Below, piece after piece: positions 2,328 through 13,212 of a stretch of DNA of 64,000 nt; the first letter of the stretch is position 1; each line of letters opens with the position of its first letter. Both the position numbers and the translations under genes were made by a program. The notes below the pieces were generated by a model, which saw nothing but the letters and a program-made list of their open reading frames with translations, was not told where the DNA came from and searched no databases. Origin of the DNA: an uncultured delta proteobacterium (lineage in GTDB: Bacteria; Desulfobacterota; Syntrophobacteria; Syntrophobacterales; Syntrophobacteraceae); assembly GCA_963808625.1 (NCBI GenBank), contig CAWEHK010000002.1:1-64000 (forward strand), written 5' to 3'.

Positions 2328-3502
2328 TCAGTCTTTTGCGTTAGCGCAACTCGCGGCAACGGGGAGATGCACCATAAAATTAGCGCCACAGCCGGATTCA
2401 CTGATCACTTCAATTTTCCCGCCATATTGGTGAACCAGTTCTTTGCAGTAGTAAAGCCCGATTCCCATTCCTGCGCTACCCATGATACTGGAGGTGGCGG
2501 ATTTCGTGCTGACGAAGGGTTGGAAGATTTGGTCCTGCAGGTGCCATGGAATACCCGGTCCCGTGTCTTGAATGCTCACATGAATACGCCGAAGCATCAT
2601 GCCAGGACTTAATGGTCAGACGTTTTTCCGACTTGCTCGATCATCGCTTCAGCCGCGTTGCGGAGGATATTCCCGAAAATCTGGTTCATTTCCAGGGGAA
2701 TGCCCCGAAAAAGCGGCAGATTGTCTCCAAGTTCCCACCTTTTTTCAACCTCGTGCTTGAAATAAGGTTGGCATTCAAGGAAAAGAACCTCCTCGCGCAA
2801 GAGTTCATTAATCTGGATCCACTCCAGCCTTCGGCTCTGAGACGACCTCATCCTCTGCATGATTGCCGAGACGATTTCCCTCATCCGTTGCGCTTGCCTT
2901 TGGATAACGCTGACATTCTCGAGGTCCGGATGAAGGATTCGCAGAAACTCAGCCTGCCCCATGATACTCATAAGCGGATTGTTCAAGTCGTGCAATATCC
3001 CGGCAAGAAGCCTCCCCGTTTGAATCAAGGGCTCCACTTCCGAAAACCTTACAATCTGTTCCTGCAATTGGGTTTGAAAGGACATGATCTGTCCCCGAAG
3101 GCACGCCATTTCCTCCTGAACCAGCCGGGTTTCATGCAGGTTTTCCCGTGCCCGATCCAACGTGTCTTTCAGGTAATCCAGATCGATCGGTTTGGTGATA
3201 AAGTCAAAAACCTTCAGGTGAATGGCATCGATCGCCGAACCGAGGGTGCCGTAGCCGGTAAATACAATAATTGCCGTACTCTCATTCAGTTTTCGGATTT
3301 CGCTTATAACTTCAAGTCCCGACATCCCTGGCATCCGCAGGTCGGTCAACACCAAATCCGGCTTCACTGTGCGAAAAACAGTAAGACCCGCGCTACCGTC
3401 CTGGGCCTCGTGTACTTCGTATCCTTCGTCTTCCAGAAATTCTCTTAATCCATCGAGGACTGCCTGTTCATCATCAATGATCAATATTGGAGTACCCTGC
3501 AT
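2328..3502 (-). CDS. Hybrid REC-HisKA-HATPase protein (frameshift near 2610)
   Basis: N-terminal receiver 'ILIIDDE...DLVLTDLRMPGMSG', H-box 'AGILHDLNNPL', N-box 'NILRNAAEA'; G-boxes 'DTGPGI...GMGIGL' in ORF 2328..2600. Confidence 0.88.
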
Positions 3503-3668
3503 TGCGGAGGCCTTTCTAGCTTGCAGATGTTCGCAAATCGTTTCTGCGATTATGCTGTCCTCAAAGGCAAGTTGATGACGCGCCCCGGCTCCGCACCCGG
3601 AGCAGTGCGCCAGCAGATCCAAGCCTATCAATCAACTTGAGATCATCCAGGTCAATTGCTCGCCACGT

Positions 3669-4052
3669 CTAATGCAGCGCGGCACGCGTAATGTCTTCCA
3701 CCTCATCGACGTCAAGAGGTTTCCGAAGGTACTTGTAGACTCCGTATTGTCGCGCCATCTCTTCATGGTGGTCTTGAGGCAATGCCGTAACGATCACCAC
3801 CTTGGTGGGCATTTCCCGGTCATGCATCCACTTCAAAAGTTCCATGCCGCTCATGCCTGGCATCTTGATGTCCAGGAAGAGCAGGCGAGGGCTTTGCTGG
3901 ACGCAGCAGCTGAAGGGCTTGCGTTGCCGCTGTTCACCATCGTAAGCGAATAATCATCTCCCAGCATAGCATCAAAGGAATCCAAGATCCCCTGATCATC
4001 ATCCACCACAACAATGGATTCTCACCTTCCCTGTTCATCTTCTTTCCTCCAT
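3669..4052 (-). CDS. Single-domain response regulator (frameshifted; start approximate)
   Basis: 'IVVVDDDQGILDSF' then 'LLFLDIKMPGMSGMELL...VVIVTA...YLRKP' in another frame. Confidence 0.8.
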
Positions 4053-4347: not shown

Positions 4348-6267
4348 TCAGTGAAGAGCAGGTCGATACTTCTCCCTGCATGCAGGGAGATAGACAACGA
4401 AAGAACTCCCCTCACCGACCCGACTTTCGACCTCAATATGTCCGCCATGTTCGGTGATAACCTTATGAGTAATGGCCAAACCCAGTCCTGTTCCCCTGTC
4501 TTTTGTGGTGAAGAAAGGGTTAAAAATATTCTTCAGCAGTCTCTGGAGCAATGCCAACCCCGGTATCTGCAAAGGTGAGGGAAACCCAGCCATCTCTGTT
4601 GGGATGGCATGGGTTTGTCCGAGACCATCCTCCGTTTGTCGACGTGCCCTCGAGAGTCAATCTGACCACCATTGGGCATAGCCTGGATCGCATTCCTGAA
4701 AAGATTGTAGAAGGCTTTGACGAGCTGGTCCGAGTCAGCAAGAATCGGAGGCAGATCGGGGGACAGATTAGTCACGCAATTGATCTCGTTGATTTGCAGT
4801 TCACCTTCGAAAAATTCGACTGTCTGTACCAGAAGCGGCTGAAGTTCTAGGGCATGGAAAATGGTACTTAGGCGTTCTGGAAAGCTCCAGCAGATCCTCA
4901 ATCAGGACGATTGATCCGATCAAGCTCGCGCGGGACCGTTCGCTGGAATTTCTCCAGAAAATCGGGTTTGCTCACTTTCCTGGGGAGCAACTGCACAAAG
5001 GTTTTGATCGCGGAAAGCGGGTTTCGAATTTCATGCGCCATTCCTGCAGCCAGGGTGCCCAGCGCTGCCAACCGTTCTGCCTGCCGAATGCGCACTTCGA
5101 GGCGCTTTAGCTCCGTAATATCGTGCAGGTTAGTGATCACCTCAAGAGGACGTCCCGCATCGTCTGCAAGCAGGCTCGAATTGGCCAAAATAATCTGCTC
5201 TTCACTCCCATGGCCGATTCGCAGTTCCTGTTGGGTTCGACCCTTTGGGTCCTGCAGCACTTCTTCAACATAGGAAAGCACCATCGGGGCCTGCTCGAAG
5301 ATCATTGATGCATTGCAGTCCTTCGAGACTCCATCCGAGATGCCTAACATGCGGCACGCTGCCGGGTTGATAGCCGCAATGTTGCCACCCTTGTCCACAG
5401 AAAGCAGTCCGTCACTCATGGTGGTCAGCAGTCTTTGAGTGTAGGCCTGCAGGCGCTTGATCTCCGATAGCTGCGACTCGAGTTGTTGCCTTTGGGCAAG
5501 GATTTCTCGCATCATGGTGGAGAAATTGGAGGCCAGTATTTCGACTTCATCACCCGTTTCAACATCGATGTTTTGGGACAAATTGCCTTGCGCAGCCTCT
5601 ACTGGTAGCATTGACCAATGTCCCCAGAGGGCGAGTAATGCGTCGAGCGCCCCAGATAGAGAGCACGATCCCGATGATCAGCGCGACACAGCCAATGCCG
5701 ACAATAATCAATTGTGTCTGGCGAATTTGCTGGTACATGGGCGCCAGCGTCACGGCCACGCGGATCGTTCCCCAGCGGTGATCCGAACCCCGAATGAAGA
5801 CCGGTGCAGCAATATCCATCACGGGCATGCTTTCAGCTCCCCAAGTTGTGGTTTGCGTGGCAGGCTCTTCCGCGGAGAGAGCTTTCAAGCTGACTTCATC
5901 CTCCAACAAGGTGCCTTGCAGATCCGCTCTTCCACTGTACCCCGCAACACGCCCTTCCTTATCATGGATGATCACATAGACAATATCCGGATCATCCCTC
6001 TGAGTTTGATTGGCCGCTTGTTCAAGGGCAATGTAGTTGTACGTAGCCAAGGAGGCCTTCGACGTAGCGGCAAGGCTTCTTGATATGGCCAGGCCTCTTC
6101 GCTCCAACTGTTCTCGGATTGTTACACTTTGGTGGGTGATAAGAATGGAGCCAAGCGTTCCTAAAAGGAAGAATCAATAAGCAGGAAATAATGAAGATAA
6201 AGCGGTAACGCAGGGAAATAAAACGACGCTTATTCAGGGGCCGTTTTCTTGAAGGTCGCTCTGACAT
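4348..6267 (-). CDS. Membrane sensor histidine kinase (TM-periplasmic sensor-TM-HAMP-PAS-HisKA-HATPase; several frameshifts)
   Basis: TM after '[10 protein letters not shown]', periplasmic '[14 protein letters not shown]', TM2 + 'RRITRPL' HAMP, PAS 'DGLLSVD...INPAA', H-box '[12 protein letters not shown]', 'NLFRNAIQA', '[13 protein letters not shown]'. Confidence 0.88.
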
Positions 6268-6285: not shown

Positions 6286-7931
6286 CATCAGTGTTCGGAA
6301 GGAAGTTCGTAACCACACGCGATGGAAGGAGACAGCCTCTTCCCCAAGTGCGGTTACCTCAATCCCGCGAACCGATGACTGGTAAACACGGTCGACACTC
6401 AAAAAAAAGAGCGGAATCATGGGACAGGACTCCGCAGCCATTTCTTCAATCCGCTGGCACAATTTGGCTCTTTCGGTAAGGTCCACTCTCTGGCTCGCCT
6501 CTTTCAGGGTAGCATCGATTTCCTCATTTCGATAACGCATGTAGTTGACCTGGGAGAAGGATGCAACGAAGAGGCTGCAGAAAACTATCCGGATCAGGCA
6601 TGTCCGCAACCCACGCATACCGATAGATTTGCAGCGAATCAGATTTGAGGTATTGCTCAAATTGCGACCAGTCAGGGATGAACTTCGGCACCATCCGGAT
6701 CCCCAACTGACTCCAGGATTCGCGCACCAGGTCGAGCTCAGCCAGCGCCAGTGGGGATTGGCTGTTTGAAACTACTTCAATGGTTGGCAGGGCATCCTCC
6801 TTTGCTCCGAAGACGCTTTTTCACTAGGCTTTTTGCCAGGTCAAGGTCATAGAACCACAGCTTACTCTGCGGCAGATAACCGGGCATGCCGGGTGGCAGA
6901 AGTGATTGAGCTGCGTCGAACTGACCTTTGTATACCTCCGAAATGATCTTCTGACGATCAATTGCCGCCGCAAGCGCCTTTCTCAACTCCAAATTCCTTA
7001 ATAAAGGATGCTCGCAGTTGAATCCGTAGAACAGAGACTGAGAGACGGTCGGTGCACCCACCGTACGCTCTTTGTTTTCCAGCAGCTTTGTCACGGAATT
7101 GCCAGTAAGCAGGCATCTCCTCAAGCTTGCCGTTTTGAAAGTCAGACAGGACGTCTTCTATGTTGCTGCCTGCATAGATGAGAAACTGGATTTCTTCCAG
7201 ATACGGCGCTCCATCATAATAATCGGCAAATCTTTCGAAGCTGGATATTCCTTTTTTGCTCCCACGAGGACAACTGAAAGGGCCAGTGCCAATCGGATTC
7301 TTGCCGAAGGCTTCTGCCTTAGAGGCTCACTTCCTCCCTGGGGACGATTTTGGCCTGGTACATCCCAAGAGCCGTCAGAAACGGAGTGTAAGGTTCGTCG
7401 AGCCTCACAAGCAAGGTATGGTCATCCTCGGCGCTTAAGCCGGCGACCCGATCACTCTTTTTTTCCATGAAATCCTGCGCACCCGTGATCTTGAGCAAAT
7501 GGGGCAAAATGCTCGGAGGTGGATTCGCCCGAATCAGACGGCTCAGAGAAAATATTACATCTTGAGCGGTAACCGGACGACCGTTATGAAACCGAACATT
7601 CGGTCGAAGGAAAAATCGGTAAAGTTTTCCTTTCTCCTCCACTCGCCAGTTCTGGGCCAGAGCAGGTACGATCAAAAGGTCCGGATTTAATTGCACCAGC
7701 CCATCAAAGATTTGTAGTACTACTGTCATGCTATAGAAGATCTTCGACAAAGGCGGGATCAAGGGTAGGAGGTTCATTTCGCAGAGGGATGCGATAGACT
7801 CCCCCCGAACGAGGCTGCTCTTCAGAAATGCCGTCGTTCGTGGTTTCCATTAATGCTTCGCCATTCGCATGGAACGAACTTAAAAGCAAGAAGGAGACCA
7901 ACACACAGGCATGCAAGCGAAAACAGCTCAT
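6286..7931 (-). CDS. Family 5 (OppA/DppA-like) extracellular peptide-binding protein, no permease genes adjacent (frameshifts; 3' end approximate)
   Basis: Signal peptide, 'RSGGVYRIPLRNEPPTLDPA', 'IFDGLV...PALAQNW...YRFFLRPNVRFHNGRPVTAQDV', 'PIGTGPF', 'LRKALAAAIDR', 'WVADMPDPDSFL'. Confidence 0.87.
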
Positions 7932-8011
7932 CTTTCAGCGCCTCTTACTCTACGGATTAATAAGGTCAGGTGTGATCGGTTGTCATTCTACCCCCTTTTC
8001 CGCCTGTGTAC

Positions 8012-8044
8012 AAAAAGAAAAAGCACGACTCTTTCGACTCGCGC
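8012..8044 (-). terminator. Intrinsic terminator after the tandem micro-peptide genes
   Basis: Minus strand GCGCGAGTC-GAAA-GAGTCGTGC hairpin (one mismatch, one G-U) followed by TTTTTCTTTTT. Confidence 0.7.
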
Positions 8045-8086
8045 TCTCTCCATCCCATAAGGGATTCAGCTTATGCGATTGCCAGA

Positions 8087-8179
8087 CTACGGCCCCCCGC
8101 CACCAGCAGCCAACACCGGCAGGGCATAGGTGGCGACCAGAGCACCAATCACGAACAGTTGAAGAACTATCTTTTTCAT
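8087..8179 (-). CDS. 30-aa secreted peptide precursor A: MKKIVLQLFVIGALVATYALPVLA-AGGGGP
   Basis: Manual translation: 93 nt ATG..TAG, RBS GAGGGG, basic n-region, hydrophobic h-region, P-V-L-A c-region, 6-residue tail. Below the ORF track cutoff. Confidence 0.8.
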   Translation of the reverse strand: MKKIVLQLFVIGALVATYALPVLAAGGGGP

Positions 8180-8216
8180 CATCTTTCCCCTCTTTATTCT
8201 TAAGGGTGCGAATTAA

Positions 8217-8310
8217 CTACGGTCCCCCGCCGCCGTGCAGCCAACACCGGCAGGGCATAGGTAGCGACCAGAGCACCGATCACGAACAGTTGAAGAACTA
8301 TCTTTTTCAT
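8217..8310 (-). CDS. Secreted peptide precursor B, paralog of A (one extra base; likely ...PVLA-xGGGGP)
   Basis: First 24 aa identical to copy A with only synonymous changes. 94 nt to the equivalent TAG. Removing one base in GCAC restores (A/D/H)GGGGP*; as read it gives ...AARRRGTVVNSHP* ending at 8200. Confidence 0.72.
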
Positions 8311-8392
8311 GATCTTTCCCCTTCCTCAGGCTTGATGATTATTATTTGTTGAGAATACCACCCCATTTTTGTCTTGTTTCGTTAAACTTACA

Positions 8393-8408
8393 TGCAAACT
8401 GCATACCA
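8393..8408 (-). promoter_or_regulatory. Sigma54 (-24/-12) promoter upstream of the peptide genes
   Basis: Minus strand TGGTATGCAGTTTGCA with exact GG-N10-GC spacing, ~80 nt upstream of copy B ATG, followed upstream by a very AT-rich tract. Confidence 0.78.
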
Positions 8409-8700
8409 ATAAAGAGTATTATTCTTACTATTAATAAGTACTTAGAAATATTATATTATAATTGAATAGCGTCGGGTCACGGAAAGGCGCCGACTTGAGG
8501 GACTTGCACAGATTTGAGTAAAACAAAGTGAATGGAATACCGGCAGAGAACTAAAGAATATACGCCAGCAGCTTATGTGCCTAGCCATGTGGGCTATTAT
8601 GCACACATTAATATGCAGCTGCTCAGGGAGACCACCACAAGAAGCAGCGTGAACCGGAGAATGGCGCGGCCGACCAGCAGATCTCCCTTGTTCACGAAGG

Positions 8701-10098
8701 CTATTCATCTGTCTGGGAACGCAGTTCCAGTATCTTCATCTTCTGAAGAAGGGTATTGCGATGGATTTTGAGGACCCGTGCCGTATCGGTTTGATTCCAT
8801 CGGCACCGCTGCAAGGCTCGTAAAATATACTGCCGCTCGAACTCTTGTCTTGCGCTGGATAAGGCCCAGGTCGATCGCCGTTTCATCTCTTGTCCGTATG
8901 TTCCCCGGCTTCCTCTCGGATCAAGAGATCAAAAGGAAGGTCATTCTCATGAATCCACTGGTCAGGTGAACCTAACACGACCAATCGTTCAATAAGGTTC
9001 TCCAGTTCTCGGACATTCCCTGGCCATGGATAGGATTCCAGCACCTCCATAGCATCAGGGCCGATTCCTCTCACCCTCTTGTTCAAGACACGGTTAAATT
9101 TCGCTAGAAAAAAGTTAGCCAAGAGCGGCACATCTCCCTTGCGTTGACGCAGGGGCGGGAGTTGAATAGGAATGACATTAAGCCTGAAATAAAGGTCATT
9201 ACGAAATTGCCTTTCCTTGATGAGCTGTTCCAGGGGAGTGCTGGTTGCGGCAATGATCCGGACGTCCACTTTGATTGTCTGATGACTGCCCACTCGCGAA
9301 AACTCTCGCTCCTGAAGCACCCGCAGCAGTTTCGCCTGAAATTCGAGTCTGAGGCTCGATACTTCATCCAGAAAAATGCTGCCCCCGTGAGCATACTCGA
9401 ACTTGCCAATATTTCGAACATAGGCGCCGGTAAATGCGCCCTTCTCGTGCCCGAAGAGCTCGCTCTCTATCAATTCCGGCGGAATAGCCGCACAATTAAT
9501 GGCCACGAAAGGCTTTTGATTGCGAGGGCTATGCGCGTGAAGTGCACGAGCAACCAATTCCTTCCCGGTCCCGCTCTCTCCGGAAATCAGCACATTACTG
9601 GAAGTATCCGCAACCTTTTCGATAATCCGAAACACCGCACCCATATTTTCAGCCTGACTCATGATCTGCATGTGGCCGATATCCAGCCCCGTGCCCCGAT
9701 AAGCTGGCTTTATCTCCCCCTTCATAGACTCGCCTGGTGATGACCTTCTCGACAGCTTCCAAGATTTCGTCAGGCTCATAAGGCTTGGTAATGTAGTCAT
9801 AAGCGCCCGACTTGAGCGACACCGTAGCTTCTCGAGCCCGGTCGGCGCCGGACACCATGATTACCTCAATAGCCTCATCGTAATCCTTAATCCATTTCAA
9901 CACTTCAAGGCCGCTCACCTTGGGCATGTTCACATCCAGGAGCACCAGATCAAAGGGCTTTTCCTGGATTCTGGCCAGAGCACTCATCCCGTCTTCCACG
10001 GTCTCTACGTCGTAATGTTCCTCAAGGATAACTTCAAGGGACTCCCTTGCTCCTTCTTCATCATCCACTATAAGGATGTGTCTTGGTTCCTCACGCAC
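8701..10098 (-). CDS. Sigma54-dependent NtrC-family response regulator (REC-AAA-Fis HTH; frameshifts near 9700 and 8885)
   Basis: REC 'ILIVDDE...DLVLLDVNMP', Walker A 'GESGTGKE', 'ELFGHEKGAFTGA', 'WPGNVRELEN', HTH 'WNQTDTARVLKIHRNTL'. Confidence 0.93.
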
Positions 10099-10368: not shown

Positions 10369-11748
10369 ATGATGAAATCATCTCGGATTGTGGGAAGGGA
10401 AAATACTCTCACTGATCGAGAAGAACTCACCTGTTACGGTTACGATGCCAGCAAACTCAGGGCCTTGCCCGATGTGGTTGTTTTTCCAGGCAGTATGGAG
10501 GAGGTCGCAGCACTGATTAAACTGGCGAATCGTAAGCGGTTTCCGGTCTTTCCCCGAGGGGCAGGCAGTGGCATGGTGGGGGCGGCCGTGCCATGGAACG
10601 GTGGGATGGTCATGGTGCTCACCCGATTGAATCGGATCCTGGAAATCGATCCCGACAATATGGTGGCAGTTTCAGAACCAGGGGTAATAACTGGAGAATT
10701 TCAAAAGGCCGTTTTGCGTCATGGGCTTTTCTATCCACCCGATCCGGCCAGTCTTCAGTTCTGCACCCTTGGCGGCAATGTCGCCATGTGCGCCGGAGGT
10801 CCCAGAGCCGTCAAATACGGCGTCACCCGAGACTATGTACTGGGACTGGAGGCGGTTTTACCGACGGGTTCCGTCATCACCACCGGAACTCGGACCATGA
10901 AGGGTGTGGTTGGATACGATCTTACCCGCCTTCTCGTGGGGTCCGAGGGAACTTTGGGGATCTTCACGAAGATTATTCTTCGCCTGGTCCCCGCACCGGA
11001 AGGCGTGCGCACCCTGATGGCCGTTTTCCCGAATCTGGAAGGGGCGGCAAAAACGGTTTCGGCTATCATCAAGCAGCGCATCGTTCCTTCCACTCTCGAA
11101 TTCATGGATCAGGCCACGATCAAGGTCGTAGAGAACTACCTGCAGATGGGGCTGCCAACCCAGTCTGAAGCGATCCTTCTGATCGAGGTAGATGGCCGTG
11201 AATGCCTCCTCGACGGTGATGTGGAAAGGATCGGAGAAATCTGTCGTCAATGCGGCGCTTCCGAGGTCGAAATCGCCCATACCGAAGCTGAGCGAGAGCG
11301 TCTGTGGCGGGCTCGAAGAGCGGTTTCACCGGCGCTCGGCCAGATCAAGCCAGGGAAAATCAATGAGGACGTGACCGTCCCCCGTACGGAAATCCCGGCA
11401 CTCATTCGCGCGATCCAACAACTGGCAGAAAAATACGCCCTTACCATTGTTTGTTTTGGTCATGCTGGCGATGGCAACATCCATACCAACATCATGCTGG
11501 ACCGAAACAACAGGGATGAGCTCAGGAGGTCTGAGATGGCCGTTGAAGAACTGTTTCGGATTGTGCTTGGACTCGGAGGCACCCTGTCAGGAGAACATGG
11601 GATTGGCATCACCAAGTCCCCCTTCTTGCAGTGGGAGATCGGAGCGGAAGGTTTCGAGGCAATGTGGCGAATCAAGACAGCACTTGATCCCCTAAATATT
11701 CTGAACCCCGGGAAAATGTTCGTCCCCAACCGAGCCTTTTTTAACTAA
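10369..11748 (+). CDS. glcD: FAD-linked oxidase, glycolate/D-lactate dehydrogenase GlcD-like subunit
   Basis: 'PRGAGSG', 'YPPDPAS', 'GGNVA...GGPRAVKYGVT', 'GHAGDGNIH', 'SGEHGIG', 'DPLNILNPGK'. Confidence 0.85.
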   Translation: MMKSSRIVGRENTLTDREELTCYGYDASKLRALPDVVVFPGSMEEVAALIKLANRKRFPVFPRGAGSGMVGAAVPWNGGMVMVLTRLNRILEIDPDNMVAVSEPGVITGEFQKAVLRHGLFYPPDPASLQFCTLGGNVAMCAGGPRAVKYGVTRDYVLGLEAVLPTGSVITTGTRTMKGVVGYDLTRLLVGSEGTLGIFTKIILRLVPAPEGVRTLMAVFPNLEGAAKTVSAIIKQRIVPSTLEFMDQATIKVVENYLQMGLPTQSEAILLIEVDGRECLLDGDVERIGEICRQCGASEVEIAHTEAERERLWRARRAVSPALGQIKPGKINEDVTVPRTEIPALIRAIQQLAEKYALTIVCFGHAGDGNIHTNIMLDRNNRDELRRSEMAVEELFRIVLGLGGTLSGEHGIGITKSPFLQWEIGAEGFEAMWRIKTALDPLNILNPGKMFVPNRAFFN

Positions 11749-12075: not shown

Positions 12076-13212
12076 TTATGCAGCCAGAAATAGAGCTGCT
12101 TCCAGGCACGAGGAAGATATCGCAGGAAATGGCGTTTTGCCTTTAACCAGCCCGAGATAGCTGTAGGCCCCAAGAACCTGCAGATTTCGGCAGAGGCGAA
12201 GCACGCCATAGGATTTCAGGAAACACCCAAAGGAACCATCCTGATAGCGACGCGCTTGCGACCAGTACAGGGCAAGGGCTTTCCTTTCCATTTCCGGGGA
12301 TATCCGGACATAAGGATCGATCAGGAGCGAGGCGAGGTCGTAAGCGGGAGGGCCGAAGCGCATTCCCTGAAAGTCTATAAGCCGCAACCGGCGCCCATGG
12401 ATCATGATGTTACGGCTTTGAAAATCCCGATGAATGACATGCGACAAAGGTAGTGACGCCGGCAGCTTCGGCGATATTTTCAAAATCATGGCGGAGGTCG
12501 TCAGGACCAATTTCAAGCCCGAGACAACCGTTGAGGAAGCGTTCGCGAAAATATTCCAATTCCCGTTGGTAAACGAAAGCAGAATCGTACACGACGGTAT
12601 CAAAACAGTAGCCTGTTTCAAAACCCTCCCGAGCTCGCCGCTGCATATCCACCAAAAACTGCACGACGCGATGATAGACGGGAAAGAGATCAATTCTGCG
12701 CCGGTTGACAAGGGTTTGCAGATGGAAGTCACCCAGATCTTCAAGCAAAAAGTACCCCTGGGCAAGGTCAGCCCAATAGATGCGGGGCACTGGCACGTTG
12801 CGGCGGCAAGAGATGATTGCCAATAAGGAAATACGAATCGTTTTCGTCGATTCCCTCGGTGCTTCTGCCGGGGAGAGATCAGAGCAATCAGGTGGAAGGT
12901 TCCGTCGCGAACTCGAAAAAACCTTCGTTCAGAACCATCACCCAAAAGCGCGCTCAACTGAACCCGATCCTTAGAAAACCCTGCTGCTCCCGAGCATTTC
13001 TCGAACCAGATTGGAGAATTCTCGATCGAGACAAGCGTTCAAAAAGTCCTCCCCTGGCGTTTCGACTGAAGGCCGCGCCGAGAAAAAGCCTCGAAAGCAG
13101 TTGTTCGGGGCCGGAAGGATCGCTCGCCTTCGGCTCGGAATAGGTCTTCCGGAGAGACCACACGGCTCGCCAAAACTTCACCTCACTGATCCGATGAGAA
13201 TCTCGTTTTCAT
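12076..13212 (-). CDS. Aminoglycoside-phosphotransferase-family kinase, AmgK-like (frameshifts; start approximate)
   Basis: 'GDGSERRFFRV', 'FLLEDLGD', 'HRDFQSRNIM', 'IDFQG...GPPAYDLASLLIDPY', 'RNLQVLGAY'; adjacent to a MurU-like gene. Confidence 0.8.

Follow-up and report, generated by a model that had tools for sequence, protein, structure and literature searches.

The stretch of DNA analysed here, called the window below, comprises 64,000 nucleotides (nt) of an uncultured delta proteobacterium of the Syntrophobacteraceae (assembly GCA_963808625.1, contig CAWEHK010000002.1, positions 1 to 64,000). Its minus strand carries two tandem micro-genes, each of which reads as a signal-peptide-like leader followed by a short glycine-rich tail. 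The two open reading frames (ORFs) are as follows.

8087..8182, minus strand: micro-gene copy A, an ORF of 30 amino acids (aa) from the ATG at 8179 or 31 aa from the ATG at 8182, with the tail AGGGGP
8200..8310, minus strand: micro-gene copy B, the first of the array, an ORF of 36 aa as assembled

The product of copy A is MKKIVLQLFVIGALVATYALPVLAAGGGGP, in which MKK, a hydrophobic stretch, and the block YALPVLA precede AGGGGP. Copy B encodes the same first 25 residues and, as assembled, then reads on as ARRRGTVVNSHP. Removal of base 8236 turns it into an ORF of 30 codons that ends in ...VLA-AGGGGP-stop, with the stop codon at 8219..8217. Aligned at the DNA level, the two ORFs differ only by the exchanges ATT/ATC, GCC/GCT, GGT/GGC, and GGG/GGA and by one extra base in copy B. 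The copies have a purine-rich Shine-Dalgarno block of 11 nt in common, and the flanks outside this block diverge. An earlier note on this DNA had described two tandem micro-ORFs with purely synonymous substitutions, purine-rich ribosome-binding sites, and diverging flanks, and both the ORF reading and the DNA alignment bear out that description.

A protein search recovered the ORF of approximately 30 codons in 28 of 60 related genomes, often in two to four tandem copies. Of 400 genomes sampled from the phylum, eight contained the ORF, with the occurrences concentrated in a few bacterial families. Searching 1.84 billion representative proteins with a profile built from 22 members yielded 65 matches at E ≤ 0.001, one of which (979 aa) was spurious. 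In nearly all others, MKK is followed by some 17 hydrophobic residues and ...LPVLA; a single variable residue then leads into a Gly-rich run of three to five residues, with up to three more before the stop, and nearly all genuine matches terminate within six residues of the Gly run. Over the family as a whole, the tails comprise 5–11 residues and the arrays 1–11 copies. A degenerate DNA pattern, 50 of whose 69 matches were chance matches in GC-rich genomes, placed members in named genomes of the Syntrophobacteraceae, the Desulfobacterales (including Desulfobacula), Desulfoferrobacter suflitae DRH4, and unclassified "Deltaproteobacteria" metagenome-assembled genomes (MAGs). D. suflitae DRH4 (locus L027) is a cultured carrier. 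In the ESM Atlas, only unnamed clusters of 29–33 aa match the peptides. Pfam and NCBIfam yielded nothing but sub-threshold matches for them, and Rfam had no match in window positions 7700–8900. The titles and abstract openings listed in literature searches contained no mention of the family, and its motif strings gave zero matches there. The micro-genes are thus members of a conserved family without a name in sulfate-reducing and syntrophic bacteria of several Desulfobacterota families.

To judge the selection acting on these genes, we compared 36 unique coding sequences from 34 loci. The synonymous proportion of differences (pS) was 0.74, that is, saturated, and the nonsynonymous proportion (pN) 0.21, giving a pN/pS of 0.29 for a set in which the harvesting pattern itself had fixed P21, A24, and most of the Gly run; unconstrained protein and profile searches returned the same conservation at these positions. 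The entropies of the three codon positions were 0.80, 0.34, and 1.55, every Gly position uses all four Gly codons, and the YALPVLA block has a pN/pS of only 0.08. Saturated synonymous sites together with the free use of Gly codons indicate that it is the peptide, rather than a DNA or RNA motif, that is constrained. The view that selection maintains the peptide, as opposed to a neutral repeat, is therefore upheld by the recurrence in relatives, the profile matches, and the pN/pS value. We conclude that the micro-genes are almost certainly real, translated genes.

Some individual members deserve mention. The metagenomic sequences P0041 and P0042 extend past the usual stop, and the Gly run of P0042 reads Arg/Gly, resembling a frame slip; indels or sequencing errors seem to arise easily in the run of Gly codons. 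The largest array, at locus L080 (5997-7686, minus strand, in a MAG), consists of 11 tandem micro-genes with a period of 160 nt, the tail RGGGGL, and one sigma-54 element, and adjoins a DDE transposase gene. In the window, an antisense ORF of 174 aa (7828-8352, plus strand) overlaps the micro-genes. It has a counterpart of 185 aa in L055 (5932-6486, minus strand), for which a Pfam scan found no match. A gene caller would probably prefer such a long antisense ORF over the micro-genes, and this may be why they stay unannotated. The locus shows how genes of 30 codons lying under a long antisense ORF escape annotation.

The leader has the composition of a Sec-type signal peptide. All aligned members start with MKK or MKR and continue with approximately 17 hydrophobic residues. 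Position −1 relative to the candidate cleavage site is Ala in every member seen, position −3 is Val, Leu, Ala, or Ile, and position −4 is Pro. At +1, we encountered A, C, S, E, G, R, N, D, T, F, H, M, V, Y, W, and Q, and never Pro. P21 and A24 were preset in the harvested coding set, whereas the profile matches are free of this constraint. A charged n-region, an h-region, and a c-region of the signal peptidase I type are all recognizable. Across the family, the motif thus fits the proposal that the first 24 residues resemble a signal peptide with a signal peptidase I-type site ahead of a six-residue tail. On the strength of this motif, cleavage and release of the peptide after ...VLA appear rather likely. 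The family does not belong to the double-glycine leader type: its Gly run lies C-terminally, after the signal peptide, and no ATP-binding cassette (ABC) exporter was found in 10 loci.

The tails behave differently within and between genomes. In all 11 non-identical copy pairs from within arrays, the tails are identical, although five of these pairs (from four arrays, two of them in related genomes) differ at 9–12 of the 24 leader positions. Between loci, by comparison, the tail is common to 8 of 334 pairs with 7–11 leader differences and to none of 271 pairs with at least 12. Tail codons within arrays differ synonymously; in L118, all six tail codons differ, in each case without changing the residue. 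The occurrence of the same tails with different codons points to selection and not to gene conversion. A tail that is constant within a genome and changes between genomes shows the behaviour expected of a receptor-matched ligand. Genome G033 has two arrays, on two contigs (L106 and L107), whose tails differ: one encodes CGGGGN in three copies, the other SGGGGM in one. Each adjoins its own binding-protein gene, and the two modules could be orthogonal channels. The tail is, as far as these comparisons can indicate, the part of the peptide that carries its specificity.

The micro-genes are framed by the following signals.

8504..8510, minus strand: TGTGCAA motif approximately 100 nt upstream of the sigma-54 element, a candidate activator site
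8393..8408, minus strand: sigma-54-type −24/−12 element TGGTATGCAGTTTGCA, 98 nt upstream of the ATG of copy B, with none before copy A
8005..8051, minus strand: intrinsic-terminator-like hairpin with U-run between copy A and the binding-protein gene, fold −22 kcal/mol

In 32 of 37 loci, the first copy is preceded at a distance of 74–135 nt by the strict pattern TGGYAY-N5-TTGCW, and a relaxed pattern matches in all 37. The five remaining loci have slight variants of the element, four of them in the same range and the fifth, in L065, at −209. Inner array copies in the loci scanned are not preceded by such an element. The entire 4.8-Mb genome contains 47 such sites and encodes rpoN (on C42). Judged by sequence, the locus therefore has the components of a sigma-54-dependent transcription unit, namely the element, an adjoining AAA+ activator, and rpoN. 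TGTGCA[AC] recurs approximately 100 nt upstream of the promoter, and exact TGTGCAA is present in 26 of 38 upstream regions, mostly at −200 to −220 from the ATG. Genome-wide, the combination of promoter and TGTGCA motif was found at 2 of the 47 sites, which is about the chance expectation.

At the other end of the array, an A-tract, a GC-rich hairpin, and a U-run follow the last copy in 35 of 38 loci, compared to 20 of 98 control coding pieces. The terminator was found by folding and a custom scan; a simple consensus scan of positions 7700–8800 gave nothing. Sigma-70-like sites before the binding-protein gene were not above chance (two found, 1.6 expected). With a promoter before the first copy only and a terminator after the last, the micro-genes appear to form a short sigma-54 unit of their own ahead of the binding-protein and kinase genes.

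These genes belong to a conserved neighbourhood, which is represented in the window by the following features.

8701..10098, minus strand: NtrC/AtoC-type sigma-54 activator gene (REC, AAA+, HTH_8), directly upstream of the array, frame-broken
6290..7931, minus strand: orphan SBP_bac_5 (OppA/DppA-like) binding-protein gene, frame-broken in the assembly
4375..6243, minus strand: sensor histidine kinase gene (sCache_3_2, HAMP, PAS, HisKA, HATPase), frame-broken in the assembly
2334..4021, minus strand: single REC-domain gene and hybrid REC-HisKA-HATPase gene, conserved downstream members, both frame-broken

We compared 10 loci by Pfam annotation of the ORFs within ±6 kb. Nine of them contain the same module, consisting of the micro-gene or micro-genes, an SBP_bac_5 protein of approximately 550 aa, and an sCache_3_2-HAMP-PAS-HisKA-HATPase kinase of approximately 630 aa. 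In all nine loci that have both genes, the kinase gene immediately follows that of the binding protein. The REC-AAA+-HTH_8 activator is encoded upstream on the same strand or, in Desulfobacula-type loci, on the opposite strand after the kinase gene, and many loci add a REC protein and a REC-HisKA-HATPase hybrid. The gene order in the window is that of the module. The tenth locus is the 11-copy array by a DDE transposase gene; the orthologous binding protein of that genome (L121) is encoded 0.58 Mb away with no micro-gene before it. No ABC permease or ATPase gene lies within ±6 kb in any of the 10 loci, and the binding protein is thus an orphan. A tetratricopeptide repeat (TPR) receptor is not conserved in these neighbourhoods, to which the search was confined; a TPR protein occurs in L059 only. 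An orphan binding protein beside a kinase with a periplasmic sensor domain is the arrangement of the LuxPQ and TorTS type. Neither the activator nor the kinase nor the binding protein reached an equivalog cut-off. We consider it very probable that the micro-genes are functionally tied to this module.

A gene for a GlcD-like oxidase linked to flavin adenine dinucleotide (FAD) lies divergently from the activator gene in the window (10369-11748, plus strand). The same neighbour is found in L027, L055, L064, L069, and L078 and is missing from the Desulfobacula-type loci. Its adjacency is probably a matter of synteny.

The frame breaks in the window bear directly on copy B. Compared to their intact orthologues, six of the eight neighbouring genes between 2300 and 14200 are broken: the activator gene contains at least two frame changes, the binding-protein and kinase genes at least three each, and the REC gene, the hybrid kinase gene, and an APH-type kinase gene (12127-12796) that is unrelated to the module at least one each. 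The genes for the FAD oxidase and a nucleotidyl transferase are intact. ORFs of at least 400 aa cover 17% of the window and 35% of 0.78 Mb of the genome, as opposed to 61% in control loci that are biased towards long genes, and the completeness of the genome is given as 84.6%. Single-base anomalies in this genome should be read with such an assembly in mind. A relative's contig of 151 nt from wetland DNA (depth 2, ~88% identical) spans copy B and is missing precisely base 8236; where it departs from copy B at 8220, 8232, and 8235, the changes are synonymous once the frame is restored, and Ala is read at the first tail position.

The extra base is thus likely to be an assembly indel, and the product of copy B is most likely identical to that of copy A. 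That base 8236 really exists, so that copy B is a true pseudogene or encodes the longer tail given above, is an unlikely alternative. It draws on the presence of the base in the assembly outside a homopolymer and on three wetland DNA runs, which contained only relatives (word shares 0.04–0.15). Against it stand the six broken neighbours, the genome-wide shortage of long ORFs, the relative's contig, in which synonymous changes keep the frame, and the fact that no other array contains copies with differing tails. The suggestion that the two copies encode two signal variants did not hold up in view of the 11 identical tail pairs, the Ala codon of the relative's contig, and the broken neighbours. 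A second signal variant is without support whether the base is an indel or a real frameshift.

The binding protein is a plausible receptor for the tail. Its closest solved relatives are HbpA/GbpA, DppA, OppA, and MppA (E from 7e-45 to 3e-31). D452 aligns with D408 and R400 with R355 of E. coli DppA, residues which we take to anchor the amino and carboxyl ends of the ligand, respectively. Of 32 orthologues, 31 keep the Asp of D452 and one has Glu. The relationship to peptide binders of known structure, together with the retained presumed amino-end anchor, marks the protein as a probable peptide binder of the OppA/DppA type. The binding proteins carry a signal peptide or, in some orthologues, a lipobox. 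A lipobox Cys is present in those of L027, L047, L049, L059, and L070, and the others have a plain signal peptide, which suggests that membrane tethering of the putative receptor varies between lineages.

We predicted the complex of the intact L078 binding protein (residues 50–554, 8-row alignment) with its own 30-aa pre-peptide (20-row alignment). The ipSAE scores of the three runs were 0.54, 0.61, and 0.61, compared to 0.00 in all three controls; the mark that we applied is reached by 116 of 157 solved complexes and by 2 of 215 mismatched pairs. At least 65% of the contacts are common to the runs. In the predicted complex, the surest contacts are those of tail residues 25–30 with residues 447–450, 398–404, 430, 433, and 309 of the binding protein, and peptide residues 18–24 make contacts as well. 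The docking supports binding of the tail by the binding protein without establishing it.

Residue 309 also stands out in the comparison of natural pairs. In all 32 distinct binding-protein/peptide pairs, a Pro at the sixth tail position goes with Leu or Phe in alignment column 309, and any other state of that position with Gln or Arg. No other column of the 499 that could be scored predicts the tail class without error, and 309 belongs to the 44 contact columns included in the scoring. When columns 265 and 309 are left out of tree building, column 309 and the sixth tail residue each change six times on the resulting tree, and the independent contrasts are concordant in 4 of 4 cases on supported branches and in 6 of 6 on all branches. 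The co-inherited kinase, used as a control for shared ancestry, has no perfect predictor among 606 columns in 25 sequences, the best reaching 0.81. This best column, 119, lies in the periplasmic part (Leu, Thr, or Met versus Ile or Val) and separates Pro from non-Pro tails at 0.81 of the maximum; it could represent a further contact or plain phylogeny. Out of sample, L093, L120, L038, L113, and the window's own broken gene follow the column 309 rule. Taken together, direct binding of the tail to the binding protein is probable. The earlier note had hinted at a link between the micro-genes and the binding protein, which is corroborated by the conserved module, the docking, and the covariation. 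It had also proposed to test whether the first mature residue covaries with the binding pocket; such covariation was not found, and it is the last tail residue that covaries.

From these observations, we propose the following circuit. Each micro-gene would give rise to a pre-peptide of 30 residues, composed of a Sec-type signal peptide and a Gly-rich tail of 5–11 residues (AGGGGP in the window). The adjoining NtrC-type activator would switch on the sigma-54 promoter, yielding a short, abundant transcript of 1–11 copies that ends at its own terminator. The pre-peptide would be exported via Sec and cut after ...VLA by signal peptidase I, and the free oligopeptide would be held in the pocket of the co-encoded orphan OppA/DppA-like protein. 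The loaded binding protein would then act on the sCache histidine kinase, which would phosphorylate the activator and thereby close a loop on the peptide promoter. We infer export, cleavage, binding, kinase signalling, the sign of the feedback, and travel between cells from sequence data. As a whole, a Sec-exported Gly-rich peptide sensed by the binding protein, the kinase, and the sigma-54 activator is the best explanation of the locus, with a probability of roughly 55%. Feedback of the circuit on its own promoter is slightly favoured, and use of the peptide between cells is a more tentative idea.

Several points weigh against this proposal. Column 309 was first picked by eye among 45 contact-region columns, and the scan of all columns came afterwards. 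A sign test on four contrasts gives p = 0.125 and cannot reach 0.05. Two out-of-sample loci do not fit the rule, namely L116 (tail WGGGGGD, Leu at column 309) and the 11-copy genome (RGGGGL, with Met in the distant binding protein). The first tail residue, where acidic residues or Cys occur, is tracked by no contact column. In the docking, the partner had a predicted local distance difference test (pLDDT) value of approximately 50, so that its own fold is uncertain, the peptide was entered as the full, uncut 30-mer, and the positive score may reflect OppA-peptide complexes of known structure that the model has memorized. The residues fixed by the harvesting pattern and the points in favour of a real extra base in copy B, both described above, belong to the same list. 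Finally, the hydrophobic part of the leader (Q7, F9, V10, G12, Y18) is more conserved than a plain signal peptide requires.

This last point leads to the main rival explanation, in which the 30-mer stays uncleaved as a single-pass micro-protein of the inner membrane, N-in/C-out, and either offers its tail to the binding protein or modulates kinase activity via its helix, as is known of other small membrane proteins that regulate sensor kinases. The near-invariance of Q7, V10, and Y18 and the strong constraint on YALPVLA would suit such a helix, as would the docking contacts of residues 18–24, and the covariation of tail and binding protein fits equally well. However, the best-conserved block is an exact signal peptidase I site, with Pro at −4, Val at −3, Ala at −1, and never Pro at +1. 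Up to 12 of the 24 leader positions differ within arrays whose tails are the same, which argues for a less constrained helix, and the Asp aligned to the presumed amino-group anchor is kept in 31 of 32 orthologues. We therefore regard an uncleaved membrane micro-protein as rather improbable.

Two further rivals retain the binding protein and change its task, and both are very unlikely. In the first, the released X-Gly-Gly-Gly peptide binds nickel or copper through its amino terminus and backbone amides, and the binding protein senses the metal-peptide complex. Oligoglycine backbone amides are suited to metal coordination, which would fit the invariant Gly run, and the family of the binding protein includes nickel and metallophore binders as weaker matches. 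These nickel binders match at only ~1e-14 to 1e-16, far behind the peptide binders listed above; moreover, the neighbourhood has no conserved genes for metal transport or metal enzymes, and the tail lacks a conserved His. In the second, the binding protein passes the peptide to a general oligopeptide permease for reading by a cytoplasmic receptor, and the kinase senses something else. Orphan binding proteins of the OppA/DppA family can borrow a general permease, and the link between peptide and binding protein on which this scenario depends is itself supported by docking and covariation. Yet the sCache kinase gene directly follows the binding-protein gene in 9 of 9 loci with the sigma-54 activator gene alongside, and neither a permease nor a candidate cytoplasmic receptor is conserved nearby.

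That the ORFs are cis-acting leader peptides of a Gly-codon attenuator, type I toxins, or a neutral DNA repeat is likewise very unlikely, since four consecutive Gly codons with a terminator downstream and the typical toxin-like look of small hydrophobic tandem ORFs are outweighed by arrays of up to 11 copies, amino-acid-level selection across the whole ORF, a terminator 55–100 nt past the stop in most loci, downstream genes for signalling and not for glycine biosynthesis, the covariation of the tail with the binding protein, and the lack of an Rfam match in 7700–8900; as an attenuation leader, the locus is at odds with the type in copy number (1–11), in its distant terminator, and in the signalling genes that follow.

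The proposed peptide-sensing circuit, if correct, would be an unusual one for Gram-negative bacteria. Peptide pheromones are a hallmark of Gram-positive signalling and, to our knowledge, well-supported ribosomal peptide signals in diderm bacteria are rare. The locus is a complete and compact candidate circuit, comprising the array of signal genes, a putative periplasmic receptor, the kinase, the sigma-54 activator, and the promoter they would target, and the module has been kept in several families of anaerobes whose members form tight syntrophic consortia. One might go further and see in the peptides a Gly-rich pheromone family with lineage-specific tails (pherotypes), serving quorum sensing in syntrophic and sulfate-reducing Desulfobacterota, although we consider this extension speculative. 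If it were true, it would mean peptide quorum sensing in the Desulfobacterota that is read in the periplasm by an OppA-like protein together with a kinase and a sigma-54 activator. With a hexapeptide that is cheap to synthesize as the predicted signal and at least one cultured carrier, the proposal is directly testable.

Among known systems, the Phr/Opp signalling of Bacillus (RRNPP type) shares with the proposed circuit a tiny Sec-type pre-peptide, a short C-terminal oligopeptide, recognition by an OppA-family protein, and tails that differ between lineages. Unlike in Phr/Opp, neither a permease nor a cytoplasmic TPR receptor is encoded beside the genes in the 10 loci. Instead, the binding protein is an orphan accompanied by a membrane kinase and a sigma-54 activator, the host belongs to the diderm Desulfobacterota, and the product would need no trimming beyond the signal-peptidase cut. 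The pairing of an orphan binding protein with a sensor that has a periplasmic domain, with no dedicated transporter, is reminiscent of LuxP-LuxQ, TorT-TorS, and DppA-Tap. In contrast to these systems, the ligand would be a ribosomal peptide whose gene lies in the locus itself, and the binding protein falls into the SBP_bac_5 peptide-binding clade. MgrB-PhoQ and ZraP-ZraSR likewise have a small envelope product that is induced by a two-component system and feeds back on it, and ZraSR also acts through sigma-54. We found no sequence relation to either, and in the proposed circuit a dedicated binding protein intervenes and a variable tail, not a helix, would carry the specificity. By this comparison, the circuit would work most like Phr/Opp signalling joined to a LuxP/LuxQ-style kinase with sigma-54 output, as a member of neither family.

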